Assembly: GCA_026401035.1 (NCBI GenBank)
Contig: JAPLNR010000065.1
Coordinates: 3,969-67,968, forward strand
Length of the DNA stretch: 64,000 nucleotides
DNA from: Planctomycetia bacterium
GTDB taxonomy: Bacteria > Planctomycetota > Planctomycetia > Pirellulales > UBA1268
Direction of reading: 5' to 3'
Shown: positions 794-61,158 of the stretch, piece by piece
Numbering within the stretch: position 1 is the first letter of the stretch
Layout of the letters: the number at the start of each line of letters is the position of its first letter
The notes under the pieces: model-generated
Seen by the model: the letters and a program-made list of their open reading frames with translations, nothing else
What the model was told of the DNA's origin: nothing
Database searches by the model: none
Made by a program: the position numbers and the translations under genes

Positions 794-3289
794 ATGTCGC
801 CACAATTTCCGTCCGTCCCTCCGGTTCCCCGGCCGCTGCCTGCCCCCGTGCTCGACGAGCCGCCACGGCTGACGGCCCGCACGCTCGAGGGGCTCGAGTG
901 GATTCTCGCGCGGGAGCTGGAGGCCGTCGGGGCGCAGGACCTGCGGATCGGTCGGCGCACGATCGAGTTTTCTGCGGCGCCGGGCAGCGAGAACGAGACG
1001 CTCTACCGCGCCGTGCTCGAATCCCGCACCGCGATCCGCATTCTCGAGCCGTTGGGGAGATTCCGCGTCGATTCGCCCGACAGCCTCTATCGGGCGATGC
1101 AGGATGTCGATTGGACGGAGCAGCTCAAGGTGTCGGACACGCTGCGTGTCGATGCCGCGATCCACGACACGTTTCTCACGCATTCCCTCTACGCCGCGCA
1201 GATCGTGAAGGACGCGCTGGTCGATCAATTGCGGACGCCCAGCGGGAAACGGCCGAGCGTTCAACTGCGCGGAGCGACGCTCCGGCTGGCGCTGCATCTG
1301 GTCGGCGATGTCGCGACGGTCTTCCGCGATGCCGCCGGCCGGTCGCTGCACCAGCGGGGCTGGCGGATGGGCGAGGTCGAGGCGCCGCTTTCGGAGGTGC
1401 TGGCCGCCGGGATCCTCGGCATTACGGGCTGGTGGCAGCCGGGCGCGGCGGGCGGTGCGGTCAGCGGCGAACCGATTCTCGACCCGATGTGCGGCTCCGG
1501 CACGCTCGTGATCGAGGCCGCCACGATCGCGGCCGGCATGGCGCCGGGGCTCTGGCGGGCCCGCCGCAAGTCCCATGGTTTCTTCAAGTTTCGCGATTGC
1601 GACAGGCAGCTGGTGCAGCGGCTCGTGGGGGAGTTGGAGGCCCGCGTGGTCGAGCCTGCGGGCACCTTCCAGGCGAGCGACCTCGACCCGAAGGCGGTCG
1701 AAGCGGCGCAGGCCTGTGCCGAAGCGGCTGGCGTTGCTCCGTTCATCAGGATCGAGCAAAAACACTTCGAGCAGGCTCAGCCGATCGCGGGCAGGGGTCT
1801 CGTCGTGACGAATCCGCCCTACGGCGAACGGCTCCCGTTGCCCCGGGCCGGAGCACTTTTCCGGCGTCTCGGCGACTGGCTCGTGGCGCAGTGCGGTGGC
1901 TGGCGGGCGGCGTTCCTTGCGGCCGACACCCCCGCCGCCGGCCAACTCGGACTGCGGCCCACGCACCGCGTGCCCCTGATGAACGGCCCGATCGCCTGCC
2001 GGCTGCTCGAGTTGGAGATCCGCCGGCGCAACATCACCGAGGGTGTGCCAGCACTCGATGGCAGCGCCCACGGTGGTGGGCAGCACCAGCAACCGGAGGT
2101 AACCAAGCCGGCCACGGACATGGAGGGCGTCGCCGGCGTGAACCTGGATGCTGAGCGTCGGGATCGGCGGAAGCTCGACGAGCATCGGAGCTTTCGCCCT
2201 GAGGAGGAAGGAAGCGGCGAGGAGCCCCACGGCGAAAGATCCCCGCGAGGAGACTTCTGCCGTCCCGGCGACAATCCGGCTGGCTTCGTTGCCCCGACGT
2301 CGGCCCCGGGCCGCCCGCGCGGCCGCTCCGTCGACGACCAGATCGGTGACTTCCGCCGCCGGCTCGCCAAGCGGTTCAAGCATCTCTCCAAGTGGGCCCG
2401 CCGGCAGGGCATCGAGGCCTTTCGCGTCTACGATCGCGACATCCCCGAGGTCCCGCTCGTGATCGATTTCTATGCCGGCTGGCTCCATGCCGCCGAATAC
2501 GAACGGCCCCACGAGCGGACGGAGATCGAACACGATGTCTGGCTCGACAAGATGATCGAGGCGGCGGGAGTGGAGCTGGGCGTGCCGCCGAACCAGATGT
2601 TTCTCAAGGTGCGGAAGCGGCAGCGGGCCGGTGGACAGTATGAAAAGGTCGACCAGCGGCAGGCTGTACTGGCGGTGAAGGAGGGCGGCCTCGAGTTCGA
2701 GGTGAACCTTTCCGACTATCTCGACACGGGCCTCTTTCTCGACCACCGGCAGACGCGGGCGCTGGTTCGCGCGGAGGCGGCGGGCAAACGGTTCCTCAAC
2801 CTCTTCTGCTACACCGGCAGTTTCTCGGTCTATGCGGCCGCGGGCGGCGCCAAGGAGACGACGAGCGTCGATCTCTCCAACACCTATCTCGAATGGACGC
2901 GGACCAACCTCTCGAACAATGGCTTCAAGGATGCCGGCCGGCAGCGAATCGTGCGGGACGAGGTTCGCGAGTTCCTCGAGCATCGGGCGAATCGCGGCGA
3001 GCCGCCGTTCGACCTGGTCGTCGTCGATCCACCCACATTTTCGCGTTCAGCGAAGAGCGAAACGCCGTGGGACGTCGAACGCGACCACGCGGAGCTTCTG
3101 GAACTGGTCGCCAAAAACCTGTCACCCGGCGGCGTCGTCTATTTCTCGACGAACTTCCGCCGCTTCCACCTCGCCGAGGACCAGCTCTCGAAGATCTACA
3201 CGATCCGCGAGATCACCCGGCAGACGATCCCCGAGGACTTCCGCAACGAGCGGATCCACCGCGCCTGGCGGCTGGTGGCCCGCACCTGA
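794..3289 (+). CDS. rlmL: fused 23S rRNA methyltransferase RlmKL-type protein (THUMP + RlmL-type MTase, long linker, RlmK-type MTase), 831 aa
   Basis: N-terminal half has a THUMP-like region, DPMCGSGTLVIEA and TNPPYGERL. C-terminal half has FRRRLAKRFKHLSKWARRQGIEAFRVYDRDIPE, LNLFCYTGSFSVYAA and VVVDPPTFSRS. There is no in-frame stop between the halves. Confidence 0.8.
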   Translation: MSPQFPSVPPVPRPLPAPVLDEPPRLTARTLEGLEWILARELEAVGAQDLRIGRRTIEFSAAPGSENETLYRAVLESRTAIRILEPLGRFRVDSPDSLYRAMQDVDWTEQLKVSDTLRVDAAIHDTFLTHSLYAAQIVKDALVDQLRTPSGKRPSVQLRGATLRLALHLVGDVATVFRDAAGRSLHQRGWRMGEVEAPLSEVLAAGILGITGWWQPGAAGGAVSGEPILDPMCGSGTLVIEAATIAAGMAPGLWRARRKSHGFFKFRDCDRQLVQRLVGELEARVVEPAGTFQASDLDPKAVEAAQACAEAAGVAPFIRIEQKHFEQAQPIAGRGLVVTNPPYGERLPLPRAGALFRRLGDWLVAQCGGWRAAFLAADTPAAGQLGLRPTHRVPLMNGPIACRLLELEIRRRNITEGVPALDGSAHGGGQHQQPEVTKPATDMEGVAGVNLDAERRDRRKLDEHRSFRPEEEGSGEEPHGERSPRGDFCRPGDNPAGFVAPTSAPGRPRGRSVDDQIGDFRRRLAKRFKHLSKWARRQGIEAFRVYDRDIPEVPLVIDFYAGWLHAAEYERPHERTEIEHDVWLDKMIEAAGVELGVPPNQMFLKVRKRQRAGGQYEKVDQRQAVLAVKEGGLEFEVNLSDYLDTGLFLDHRQTRALVRAEAAGKRFLNLFCYTGSFSVYAAAGGAKETTSVDLSNTYLEWTRTNLSNNGFKDAGRQRIVRDEVREFLEHRANRGEPPFDLVVVDPPTFSRSAKSETPWDVERDHAELLELVAKNLSPGGVVYFSTNFRRFHLAEDQLSKIYTIREITRQTIPEDFRNERIHRAWRLVART
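2141..2285 (-). repeat. Family B hairpin repeat, reverse-orientation copy lying inside the rlmKL reading frame
   Basis: gggatcggcggaagctcgacgagcatcggagctttcgcc ... ggcgaaagatccccgcgaggagacttctgccgtcccgg is the reverse complement of the 142-bp unit at 54311-54704. Confidence 0.75.
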
Positions 3290-3440
3290 TGCCGCTTTGT
3301 CGCCAAGTCAGTTGACCGCTCGTTTTTTATCCACGCCCTCATGGAGTCAACCGACGGCCCACCGACGAAGCCCCGGGACTGTGTCTCCACGGATGACCTG
3401 GTTTGACCCGCCGCGCACGGGGGCCTTACATTCGGCGGTC

Positions 3441-10817: not shown

Positions 10818-10973
10818 ACGCGCCCAACCGGCCCGGGGCTGCCTGTACCTTCTCGGCGGACGTTCGCTACGGACATCCTGTCCTTCGCTCACTGCATGTC
10901 CGCTTCGCTTCGGCATCCTGCCTGCGCTCGCTTCCATAGCCCGCCGAGAAGGTACAGGCAGCCCCGTGCCTCC
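10818..10973 (+). repeat. Family A hairpin repeat, copy A2
   Basis: Perfect 25-bp inverted arms ggggctgcctgtaccttctcggcgg (10835-10859) and ccgccgagaaggtacaggcagcccc (10941-10965) flank the family A core. Confidence 0.8.
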
Positions 10974-10998: not shown

Positions 10999-11153
10999 GG
11001 AGGCTTCGGGTGACCCGCGCCACGGGAGCCGGCGTTGCTGACAAGCGCAGCCAGGATGGCGGAGCGCAGTCAGCATCGAGTGAGCGCAGGGCAGGATGCC
11101 CGTAGCGAACGTCCGGCGACCGGGCGTGGGTGGCCCGAAGCCGGGTTGAGCGA
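10999..11153 (-). repeat. Family A hairpin repeat, copy A3 (inverted relative to A2)
   Basis: The reverse complement aligns almost base-for-base with A1, including caacccggcttcggg and the full core. Confidence 0.8.
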
Positions 11154-11162
11154 GTTGGGGTG

Positions 11163-17671: not shown

Positions 17672-18501
17672 ACCGTCCCGCCGCCGGCCTCGGCGACACG
17701 GTGCTGCTCGCCGACGTGGGAAACACGCGGATCAAACTGGCCGTCGTCAGCGACCACGGCCTCGACGCCACGGGTTTGCGGCGGCTGCCGACCGTAGGCC
17801 TCCGGCAGGATCTCGACAGCCACGCCTTCCGCCCCGAAAACCTCGAGCGCTGGCTCATGTCGGCCGCCCCGGGATCGGCGGTCGTGCTCGTGGCGAGCGT
17901 GCATGATGCGGCCGCGACGCGACTCGAGGCCGTTCTTGCCGCGGTGTCGGCCACGAGCCACCGCCCGCTGCGGCAGCGTCGCATCGGCCATGCCGATCTG
18001 CCGCTGTCGATCGGCCTCGACGAGCCGCACAAGACCGGCATCGACCGGCTCGCGGCAGCGGCAGCGGCGGCGATCGTGAAGACACCCGACCGCGGGGCGA
18101 TCATCGTCGACTGCGGCACGGCGGCCACCGTCGACATGCTCGCCGCAGACGGCACCTTTCTCGGCGGCGCGATCCTGCCCGGTCCGGCACTCATGGCCCG
18201 GGCCCTGGCCGACGGCACGAGCAAACTGCCCGCGGTGGCGGCGCTCGAACGGTCGGCGCCGCCGGCGATGCCCGGCCGCACCACCCACGAGGCGATCGCC
18301 GCAGGCATCGGCTGGGGCATCCATGGCGCGATCGCGAAACTCGTCGCCGAGGCCCGCGGCGTGCTCGGCTCTGATGCCGACGTGATTCTGACGGGCGGCT
18401 GGCGCGGCGCCGTCCGTGCGGCCCTGCCGGAAGCGATCGACCTGCCCGATCTCGTGCTCTGCGGCATCGCCCTCGCCGCCGAACGCGCCTGCGCCCGGTA
18501 G
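17668..18501 (+). CDS. coaX: type III pantothenate kinase
   Basis: ATGA overlap with obg. LLADVGNTRIKLAV, GIDRLAAA, VDCGTAATVD, TGGW. Confidence 0.85.
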   Translation: MNRPAAGLGDTVLLADVGNTRIKLAVVSDHGLDATGLRRLPTVGLRQDLDSHAFRPENLERWLMSAAPGSAVVLVASVHDAAATRLEAVLAAVSATSHRPLRQRRIGHADLPLSIGLDEPHKTGIDRLAAAAAAAIVKTPDRGAIIVDCGTAATVDMLAADGTFLGGAILPGPALMARALADGTSKLPAVAALERSAPPAMPGRTTHEAIAAGIGWGIHGAIAKLVAEARGVLGSDADVILTGGWRGAVRAALPEAIDLPDLVLCGIALAAERACAR

Positions 18502-18519
18502 GACAGGCTTCAGCCTGTC
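18502..18519. repeat. Family C palindromic hairpin gacaggcttcagcctgtc (copy C1), immediately after the coaX stop
   Basis: 7-bp stem with a 4-nt loop. The same motif occurs at 25211-25230 and 60822-60839, each just downstream of a stop codon. Confidence 0.7.
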
Positions 18520-25169: not shown

Positions 25170-25210
25170 ACGGGTTACGTTCCAATTGTGTTCGGTACGG
25201 CACGAAAGTA

Positions 25211-25230
25211 TGACGGGCTTCAGCCTGTCA
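25211..25230. repeat. Family C hairpin (copy C2), tgacgggcttcagcctgtca
   Basis: One-mismatch version of the C motif, 42 nt after the stop at 25169. The next ~35 nt also resemble 60840-60875 (..tgctga......attggtcgccggc). Confidence 0.65.
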
Positions 25231-25438
25231 TCGCTCGGCACTTGCTGACACGCCGTATTGGTCGCCGGCCTTGCCGGGCTGGTCTGCTGGAACAGGCGAC
25301 GGGCTGCAAAGATCACGGTCCGACTGATCGCCCCCTGGAGAGATGTCCTTGGCCGTGCAGCCGCACCGGCGCGGGTGGACAATCGGCCTCGGGGCGTGAA
25401 TGATCTCGGGTTCGTTTGACGAAACCTCGAGACGCTCC

Positions 25439-54310: not shown

Positions 54311-54704
54311 AACCCGGCTGCGGGACGGCAGAAGTCTCCTTCGCGTGGATATTTCACACAGGGGTCGTGCGGGAGCTCTGGCCTCAAACGGGCGAAATCT
54401 CCAATGCTCGTCGAGCTTCCGCCGATCCCTTCGCCTGGCCGCTGGAGGTTGAAACCCGGCTGCGGGACGGCGGAAGTCTCCTTCGCGTGGATATTTCGCA
54501 CAGGGGTCGTGCGGGAGCTCTGGCCTCAACCGTGCGAAATCTCCAATGCTCGTCGAGCTTCCGCCGATCCCTTCGCCTGGCCGCTGGAGGTTGAAACCCG
54601 GCTGCGGGACGGCAGAAGTCTCCTTCGCGTGGATATTTCGCCTGGCCTCAACCGGGCGAAATCTCCAATGCTCGTCGAGCTTCCGCCGATCCCTTCGCCT
54701 GGCC
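54311..54704 (+). repeat. Family B: three tandem copies of a 142-bp hairpin-forming unit (the third is shortened to ~110 bp)
   Basis: Unit starts at 54311, 54453 and 54595, a period of exactly 142 bp. Near-identical units fill most of the speA-nadE spacer. Confidence 0.9.
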
Positions 54705-60815: not shown

Positions 60816-60875
60816 GAGTAGGACAGGCTTCAGCCTGTCATGCCCTTGCCTGTGCTGATAACCCGCATTGGTCGC
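60816..60875. repeat. Family C element (copy C3): hairpin gacaggcttcagcctgtc at 60822-60839 plus a ~35-nt tail shared with copy C2
   Basis: Begins 48 nt after the pckA stop. The tail ..tgctga......attggtcgccggc matches 25231-25263. Confidence 0.65.
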
Positions 60876-60982
60876 CGGCGGCAGAAGTCTCCTTCGCGCT
60901 GCATTTTCTCCGCTGACGACCTACGGAGCTACCGACCCCAGAAGGTCGAAAATGCATGCGCTCGTCGAGCTTCCGCCGACCG
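60876..60982 (+). repeat. Family B hairpin repeat, solitary copy with a diverged distal stem
   Basis: ggcggcagaagtctccttcgcg and gctcgtcgagcttccgcc are shared with 54311-54704. The distal stem tgcattttc/gaaaatgca is perfectly complementary but differs from the other copies. Confidence 0.7.
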
Positions 60983-61158
60983 CCTCCTCAGAATCCTGAC
61001 CGATTTCTTCGGAAGCGAATCTAAAACCGCCTGTGAAAAAAGCGTCTACAGCTGCCCCCGGTGGTGGCCGGCGAGAGGCGAAGTTTTTGACTTGCCGGCC
61101 CGCCGTGATCTAGGATTAGGGGCCGTCGTCAGCCCCTCGCCTGCCTGGAGTCAAACCG

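Follow-up and report, generated by a model that had tools for sequence, protein, structure and literature searches.

The window analysed here is a stretch of 64 kb from a Planctomycetia bacterium of the Pirellulales (contig JAPLNR010000065.1), and close to its start lies rlmKL, an open reading frame (ORF) that carries, between its two enzymatic halves, an in-frame copy of a palindromic repeat we refer to as family B. The rlmKL product is a bifunctional 23S rRNA m2G2445/m7G2069 methyltransferase, in which Pfam recognized RlmL_1st, THUMP and UPF0020 (residues 188-404), reaching residue 404, followed by Methyltrans_SAM at residues 602-784. The NCBIfam equivalog for RlmKL, NF008748, covered residues 26-829 with 676.4 bits, compared with a cut-off of 466. 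The RlmL-type THUMP/methyltransferase and the RlmK methyltransferase domains therefore share one polypeptide and a single open frame, as is characteristic of RlmKL. The Escherichia coli enzyme (PDB 3V97/3V8V) has the same two domains, and its halves aligned end to end with the product (3V97, E 5e-127) in two separate stretches, which leaves a linker of ~113 residues here compared with ~18 in E. coli. The repeat encodes ~43 of those residues, and its position between an RlmL-type and an RlmK-type half is the one that an earlier note on this DNA, made without database searches, had proposed (Table 1).

Table 1. Position, strand and basis of the features of rlmKL and of the family-B repeat in the window
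Feature	Position	Strand	Basis
rlmKL ORF, 831 aa	794..3289	+	ORF listing, Pfam, NCBIfam, E. coli RlmKL alignment
RlmL half, aa 26-404	869..2005	+	Aligns with E. coli RlmKL residues 5-375; Pfam domains to aa 404
Expanded inter-domain linker, aa 405-517	2006..2344	+	Gap between the two 3V97-aligned stretches
In-frame family-B palindromic repeat copy, ~43-44 codons	2147..2278	+	Covariance-model match, alignment, shared flanks, fold
5' arm: outer stem + GGGA[U]CGGCGGAAG[C]UCGACGAGC	2156..2183	+	Folds; family covariation
Apical domain: stem GGAGCUUUCGCCC / GGCGAAAGAUCC around variable loop 2200-2230	2187..2242	+	Folds
3' arm GCGAGGAGACUUCUGCCGUCCCGGCG	2245..2270	+	Pairs with 5' arm in folds
RlmK half, aa 518-829	2345..3280	+	Aligns with E. 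coli RlmKL residues 394-702
Three tandem intergenic family-B copies	54313..54701	-	Covariance model 107, 105 and 88 bits; between two + strand genes
Single intergenic family-B copy, different apical subtype	60868..60989	-	Covariance model 96.8 bits

A covariance model built from 69 members of the repeat family matched 2152-2275 on the plus strand with 119.7 bits (E 6e-26), the highest score in the window, and the only other strong matches were the four intergenic copies. Five occurrences of the 20-mer GCTCGTCGAGCTTCCGCCGA were counted in the window, one on the minus strand (2164-2183) and four on the plus strand (54406, 54548, 54670 and 60960), compared with 0.03 in shuffled sequence, and the five copies could be aligned with one another over ~120 nt. 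The four intergenic copies are further characterized by a second block, GGCAGAAGTCTCCTTCGCG, and the flanks of the rlmKL copy, GATGCTGAGCG and GGCGACAAT, are common to copies of an intergenic subfamily. These results bear out the earlier claim that 2141-2285 is a copy of the repeat found at 54311-54704 and 60876-60982, and both blocks quoted there as shared are present. Two details needed adjustment. Homology to the family runs from ~2147 to 2278, that is, over 43-44 codons (452-495 of rlmKL) instead of ~48, and the array at 54311-54704, described as tandem 142-bp units, does hold three tandem copies (54313-54437, 54455-54579 and 54597-54701, minus strand), the third of which is shortened. Peptides predicted across codons 452-495 include SFRPEEEGSGEEPHGER and GDFCRPGDNPAGFVAPTSAPGR, and the ~43 predicted residues probably form a charged, Pro- and Gly-rich, disordered segment. 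The sense strand of rlmKL corresponds to the better-folding strand of the repeat, hereafter the R strand, and the copy folds at -58.5 kcal/mol.

To describe the family, we searched for exact matches to GCTCGTCGAGCTTCCGCCGA with one genome per species. The 20-mer was found in at least 112 places, nearly all of them in metagenome-assembled genomes (MAGs) of freshwater Pirellulales/Planctomycetia, with many copies per genome; among the matches listed, a few were chance matches in unrelated genomes, where the second block was absent. Rfam returned no match in the window at gathering thresholds, nor did the element match any family at E<=1 when five copy-bearing loci were searched, and we found no description of the repeat family in the literature. 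On the R strand, a variable outer stem is followed by a helix in which GGGA[U]CGGCGGAAG pairs with CUUCUGCCG-UCCC and in which 101 of 108 copies have a G.U pair. A variable apical hairpin then gives a core of either ~57-64 nt or 97-103 nt. The segment [C]UC-GA-C-GA-GC may form a helix with two tandem G.A pairs opposite GC-GA-G-GA-GA; a kink-turn reading of this CGAGC/GCGAG region was rejected, as its bulge geometry is unlike that of the canonical motif.

Covariation in the outer helix indicates that the element is structured. Across the family, 97.4% of cells in this helix were paired, with far lower values in slid controls, and 45 cells carried double changes; 500 shuffles gave 6.4 +/- 2.1 and never as many as 45. 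Of 129 distinct copies, 115 had an R strand that folded more stably than the complementary strand, although the copies are related by descent and these are therefore not independent trials. A second subtype, B2, has the arms CGGUGCGAG / CUCGUACCG and differs from B by three pairs altered on both sides, with the G.U position unchanged; it occurs in intergenic regions as well as in rlmKL linkers. Of the earlier description of the repeat as a mobile or structured element, the structured part is upheld by this covariation, whereas mobility is a suggestion drawn from copy number and dispersal.

Two further observations concern the family as a whole. An extra mini-hairpin of ~23-26 nt (for example, GGTCGCTGCGCGACTCCTTCGGATC) is nested in copies at loci L025, L032, L078, L082, L084 and L107, directly after GGCAGAAGTC in one arm, which suggests that a second small palindromic unit may insert into the element. 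Near-identical family copies also lie directly 3' of a tRNA gene at loci L012 (1187-1312, with the tRNA at 1110-1183), L073 (6905-7030) and L083 (5621-5746), and the R strand of these copies is antisense to the tRNA.

Among the ~130 copies that we examined, the only ones flanked on either side, in a single frame, by the coding signature of the genome (GC content ~0.73, ~0.5 and ~0.81 at codon positions 1, 2 and 3) were rlmKL copies, namely those of the window and of loci L019, L031, L033, L057, L069, L075 and L101. The rest of this set is intergenic and prefers the 3' ends of genes in either orientation, in agreement with the proposal that an intergenic-type hairpin repeat was captured in frame as the RlmL-RlmK linker. 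The 3'-end bias is symmetrical for both strands and is therefore uninformative on RNA versus DNA function; similarly, GC skew has one sign across the window and copies lie in both orientations, so no strict replication-strand rule applies. In any given frame of the six, 68-83% of copies contain no stop, and an open frame is thus unremarkable in itself. When the 48-residue in-frame insert peptide was used as a query against 1.84 billion representative proteins, it matched RlmKL (full-length and fragment), three domain-less ORFs and one low-complexity sequence, with no domain-bearing host other than RlmKL; rlmKL is the sole recognizable host protein in this reading frame. The three domain-less ORFs (P0121, P0122 and P0125), predicted 'proteins' of 59-239 residues, consist of one or two copies of the element peptide (for example, SRDRLKLDERRDF...GEIPREGDFCRPGG) and probably represent erroneous ORF calls over intergenic (tandem) copies belonging to more distant members of the family.

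To trace the element through the gene, we compared rlmKL orthologues. In a neighbour-joining tree of the two catalytic domains, all element-bearing orthologues fall in one clade and the outgroup clades are element-free. Within the clade, types B and B2 are mixed across the branches, and several members without the element are nested. Absence of the block from some orthologues, the observation to which the earlier note had tied its proposal, is therefore seen both in outgroups and in certain nested lineages. In loci found through protein motifs outside the element, the covariance model recovered the element on the sense strand, and it detected nothing in the loci scored as having none. Copy number also varies, with tandem in-frame copies within the gene in L158 (two), L125 (four) and P0060 (three), and L157 shows an apparent deletion of the hairpin that leaves the outermost codons. 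Two flank types (DAER...PGDN or AAAS...PGADGAN) and two arm types (B or B2) occur in rlmKL in all four combinations, and there are hybrids in which B2 arms accompany the rlmKL-specific apical stem. Arrival by insertion is suggested by the outgroups without the element and by the overwhelmingly intergenic habit of the family.

Orthologue linkers are hypervariable, ranging from 42 to 191 residues. In other lineages they hold different tandem peptide repeats (P0078, P0100, P0038-P0055, L124 and L121), including HHEARSGSDGTNG in five copies, ALSESTTTPLTGV-type units in three to five, PAPAPS/SASAPS runs and PPGEGRGEGA. The RlmL-RlmK junction appears, in general, to be a hot spot at which repeats expand.

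How the block evolves was assessed from nucleotide diversity in 11 orthologues that had been ascertained independently of the element, by protein motifs lying elsewhere in the gene. The RlmL (N-terminal) and RlmK (C-terminal) domains had diversities of 0.10, 0.07 and 0.37 and of 0.08, 0.07 and 0.36 at codon positions 1, 2 and 3, respectively. Third-position diversity was only 0.039 in the 5' arm of the element and 0.034 in its 3' arm (13 of 14 third positions invariant). For both arms together it was 0.036, with 24 of 28 third positions invariant compared with 19% in the domains; no 14-codon window of the domains fell below 0.145, and none of 100,000 resamples reached the arm value. The apical loop (codons 470-479; 0.45, 0.29 and 0.47 at the three codon positions) and the flanking linker (~0.36-0.50 at all positions) vary freely. 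In a separate comparison, diversity over the element was 0.165, 0.177 and 0.177 at codon positions 1, 2 and 3, without codon periodicity. Invariant codons in the arms include AGA, CGA, GGA, TTT and CAT, contrary to the bias of the genome towards G or C at third positions. The arms are firmly constrained at the nucleotide level.

Comparisons between orthologues agree with this result. The genes at L143 and L148 are 88% identical and their 92-nt elements differ at three sites, two of which form a compensatory C-G to U-A pair. The arms of B and B2 encode unrelated peptides, and the 3' arm of L143 is read in another frame. The frozen third positions of the arms, the free loop and these differences in peptide and frame indicate that the block evolves, as the intergenic copies do, as a hairpin whose arms are constrained in sequence, and not as a protein module. 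Since the arms are fixed even at synonymous sites, the amino acid conservation of the block is a by-product.

We regard it as established that the RlmL-RlmK tether houses a structured palindromic repeat in frame, as a resident copy that is old and clade-wide. We consider it very probable that this repeat has resided in the linker since early in the history of the clade, is read through as part of the protein, and has arms that are held either by nucleic-acid-level constraint or by homogenization. A structured repeat of ~130 nt would have entered the inter-domain linker of rlmKL in the ancestor of a freshwater Pirellulales clade. Stop-free and a multiple of three in length, it would be read through as ~43 residues forming a flexible spacer. 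The RlmL and RlmK halves act independently, complement separately and are encoded by separate genes in Neisseria (Kimura et al., PMC3351187), so a tether between independent methyltransferase halves would tolerate extra length. The resident copy would then have persisted through speciation, switching between B and B2, amplifying in tandem and being lost in some lineages, while its arms would have stayed fixed through a hairpin or sequence constraint common to the intergenic copies, or through homogenization by other copies. The analysis shows the identity of the copy, its frame, its distribution over the clade, the nucleotide-level constraint and the covariation of its stems, whereas the insertion event, translation of the block, its disorder and the cause of the constraint are inferences.

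Several points weigh against this account. The neighbour-joining tree carries no support values. Transposition into rlmKL is inferred, and neither a clean empty site nor a target-site duplication was found in the spacers downstream of rlmKL or in the comparison of L157 with L114, L157 itself having the appearance of a secondary deletion rather than of an empty site. The fold energy of the rlmKL copy (z ~ -1.5) is unexceptional at such GC content, and because z-scores of this size are without significance, the evidence for structure comes from covariation. Translation of the block as a flexible spacer is a prediction. Disorder of the insert is only hinted at by a predicted structure (50-sequence alignment) in which confidence, as the predicted local distance difference test (pLDDT), was below 50 across residues 415-510, and the model was poor overall (mean pLDDT 51.9). 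Finally, given all four combinations of flank and arm type, gene conversion from other copies could account for the invariant third positions even if the rlmKL copy is under no selection.

This last point can be extended to a reading in which repeated gene conversion or re-insertion holds the arms at the family consensus, the element being selfish DNA in a permissive linker and under no selection. It accommodates the interspersion of B and B2 on the gene tree, the mixed flank and arm types within rlmKL, the presence of both subtypes between genes and the near-invariance of the arms throughout the family. However, B-type and hybrid B2-type orthologues have in common an apical stem and a CCUGAGGAGG segment that are confined to rlmKL copies, so conversion would require two short, separate tracts. 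The compensatory pair between L143 and L148 resembles a change made in place, and a family consensus fixed across genera is left unexplained. We regard a history of conversion without selection as possible but somewhat doubtful.

Selection on the hairpin itself is less likely still. The hairpin could act in rlmKL mRNA (or as single-stranded DNA) by pausing ribosomes between the domains, by binding the factor that would recognize every family member, or by influencing mRNA processing or stability. Such a role fits the constraint on both arms next to a drifting loop and drifting flanks, the compensatory pair having arisen in place, the vertically inherited apical stem, and retention of the element across the whole clade. 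The sense strand is also the better-folding R strand, with the conserved G.U pair and the proposed tandem G.A pairs, although this orientation goes back to one insertion event and has no statistical weight. By contrast, the same constraint is found in intergenic copies, which occur either way round with respect to adjacent genes and GC skew, rlmKL is intact in lineages with no element, with two to four copies or with the other subtype, and a scan around the insert for promoters and terminators revealed no promoter-like or terminator-like site. A function specific to the rlmKL hairpin is therefore unlikely in our view. We judge it similarly improbable that the whole family represents a functional structured RNA or single-stranded DNA hairpin with a conserved G.U, tandem G.A motifs and invariant protein-recognition arms and that the rlmKL copy is kept by selection.

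A protein-level module, such as an Arg-rich RNA-binding or spacer segment to which the intergenic copies would be irrelevant or from which they would derive, is very improbable. The peptide RDRRKLDEHGSFRPEE...GERSPRGDFCRPG is 74-93% identical in many orthologues, and its charged, Arg-rich composition would suit an rRNA-binding enzyme. Nevertheless, the missing codon periodicity, the frozen synonymous sites and the invariant A- or T-ending codons of the arms are not what such a module predicts; the B2 peptide differs, the 3' arm of L143 is in another frame, copy number ranges from zero to four, and outgroups have no block while more than 100 intergenic copies exist. Template-switch 'palindrome correction' of the arms is a poor fit, as it would tend to remove the conserved bulges, G.U and G.A positions. 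An artefact of assembly or sequencing that hides a stop or a frameshift between separate rlmL and rlmK genes, with the repeat in their spacer, is hardly conceivable even though repeats often cause misassembly and the two genes are separate in some bacteria (PMC3351187): the identical 831-residue protein has been recorded on 6 contigs with 38 member sequences, a single frame runs through differing versions of the element in dozens of independent assemblies (70-93% identity), and every linker-complete orthologue is single-frame. In 64 loci nothing interrupts the frame between the RlmL and RlmK halves, whatever the version of the linker, and the loci beyond these, which were missed by the motif patterns or truncated, include no split gene. 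The concern raised in the earlier note, that resequencing might split the ORF in two, is thereby answered.

We compared the repeat with known bacterial palindromes. By analogy, the phenomenon matches Rickettsia palindromic elements (RPEs) and in-ORF copies of repetitive extragenic palindromes (REPs) and of enterobacterial repetitive intergenic consensus (ERIC) sequences. RPEs (Ogata et al. 2000, 2002; summarized in PMC10969869 and PMC3733652) are palindromes of ~100-150 bp that lie between genes as well as in frame within them, adding a peptide to known proteins at a function-compatible position in many unrelated ORFs. The Pirellulales repeat resembles these descriptions in being a palindromic repeat found both intergenically and in frame in an ORF. 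It differs in that one host gene was found rather than many, in belonging to another phylum, the Planctomycetota, with high GC content, and in combining a clade-old insertion with arms whose synonymous sites are frozen, with switches of subtype and with tandem amplification within the gene.

Units of REP/BIME elements are single stem-loops, 20-40 bp in size, that end in an unpaired GTAG or CGTC tag (PMC3733652). They are multi-copy and extragenic, prefer the 3' ends of genes, lie in arrays, and occasionally occur in ORFs, where they encode 20-80 residues (PMC3733652). Family B is likewise a multi-copy, mostly extragenic palindrome that favours 3' ends and forms arrays, but it is a compound hairpin of 85-150 nt with nested stems, bulges, a conserved G.U pair, proposed tandem G.A pairs and a variable apical domain, and it has no terminal tag, CGTC occurring solely inside the GCTCGTCGAGC palindrome. 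ERIC sequences, also known as intergenic repeat units (IRUs), Correia repeats and MITE-like repeats (MITE, miniature inverted-repeat transposable element) are dispersed imperfect palindromes of ~100-150 bp that often lie in transcribed regions and occasionally have in-frame intragenic copies (PMC10969869). For family B we found no target-site duplication, parent insertion sequence with matching terminal inverted repeats or link to a transposase, nearby ORFs not having been screened for transposases. Its ends pair and covary, and its arms, which are more than inverted copies of one another, carry asymmetric conserved blocks with bulges and G.U/G.A positions instead of plain terminal inverted repeats.

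The window contains other repeats. A REP of the classical GTAG-tagged kind, GTAGGACAGGCTTCAGCCTGTC, whose stem of 7 bp encloses a 4-nt loop, is present in three copies at 18498-18519, 25208-25229 (with GTAT in place of GTAG) and 60818-60839, the last of which is ~30 nt from the family-B copy at 60868-60989. Similarity between 25207-25269 and 60817-60879 extends over 63 nt, through ...CATTGGTCGCCGGC, and REPs resembling this one border family-B copies at many MAG loci. Another repeat, family A, occupies part of the spacer just upstream of rlmKL (500-612) and recurs at 10823-10927 and 11045-11157; the first copy is 75% identical to the second and 92% complementary to the third. Family A folds no better than shuffled sequence, and the spacer (461-793) contains more short palindromes. 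Downstream of rlmKL lies a gene that apparently encodes the substrate-binding protein of an amino-acid ABC transporter, preceded by a sigma-70-like motif, TTGAC-N17-TACATT, at 3403-3432. The same motif was seen in loci L114, L117, L120, L123, L125, L127, L134 and L157, and in many orthologous loci the -35 box (GTTTGAC) includes the TGA stop codon of rlmKL; stop and box are ~110 nt apart in the window.

In-frame palindromic repeats are best known from Rickettsia, and the rlmKL case is an independent example in the Planctomycetota, in which the same ~130 nt can be traced through dozens of orthologues. Uncommon features of this example are the frozen synonymous sites in the stems and the amplification and subtype switching within the gene. 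The analysis also delineates a family of repeats, abundant in freshwater Pirellulales, for which we found no prior description, and identifies the RlmL-RlmK junction, with linkers of 42-191 residues, as a permissive site. A conserved 'protein motif' can reflect nucleic-acid constraint or concerted evolution, which matters for annotation, for scans of non-synonymous to synonymous substitution rates (dN/dS) and for motif discovery. If the hairpin is functional, a housekeeping protein of these bacteria would contain ~43 residues set by a nucleic-acid function, and the hairpin may pause translation between RlmL and RlmK or couple rlmKL expression to a factor that binds the family.

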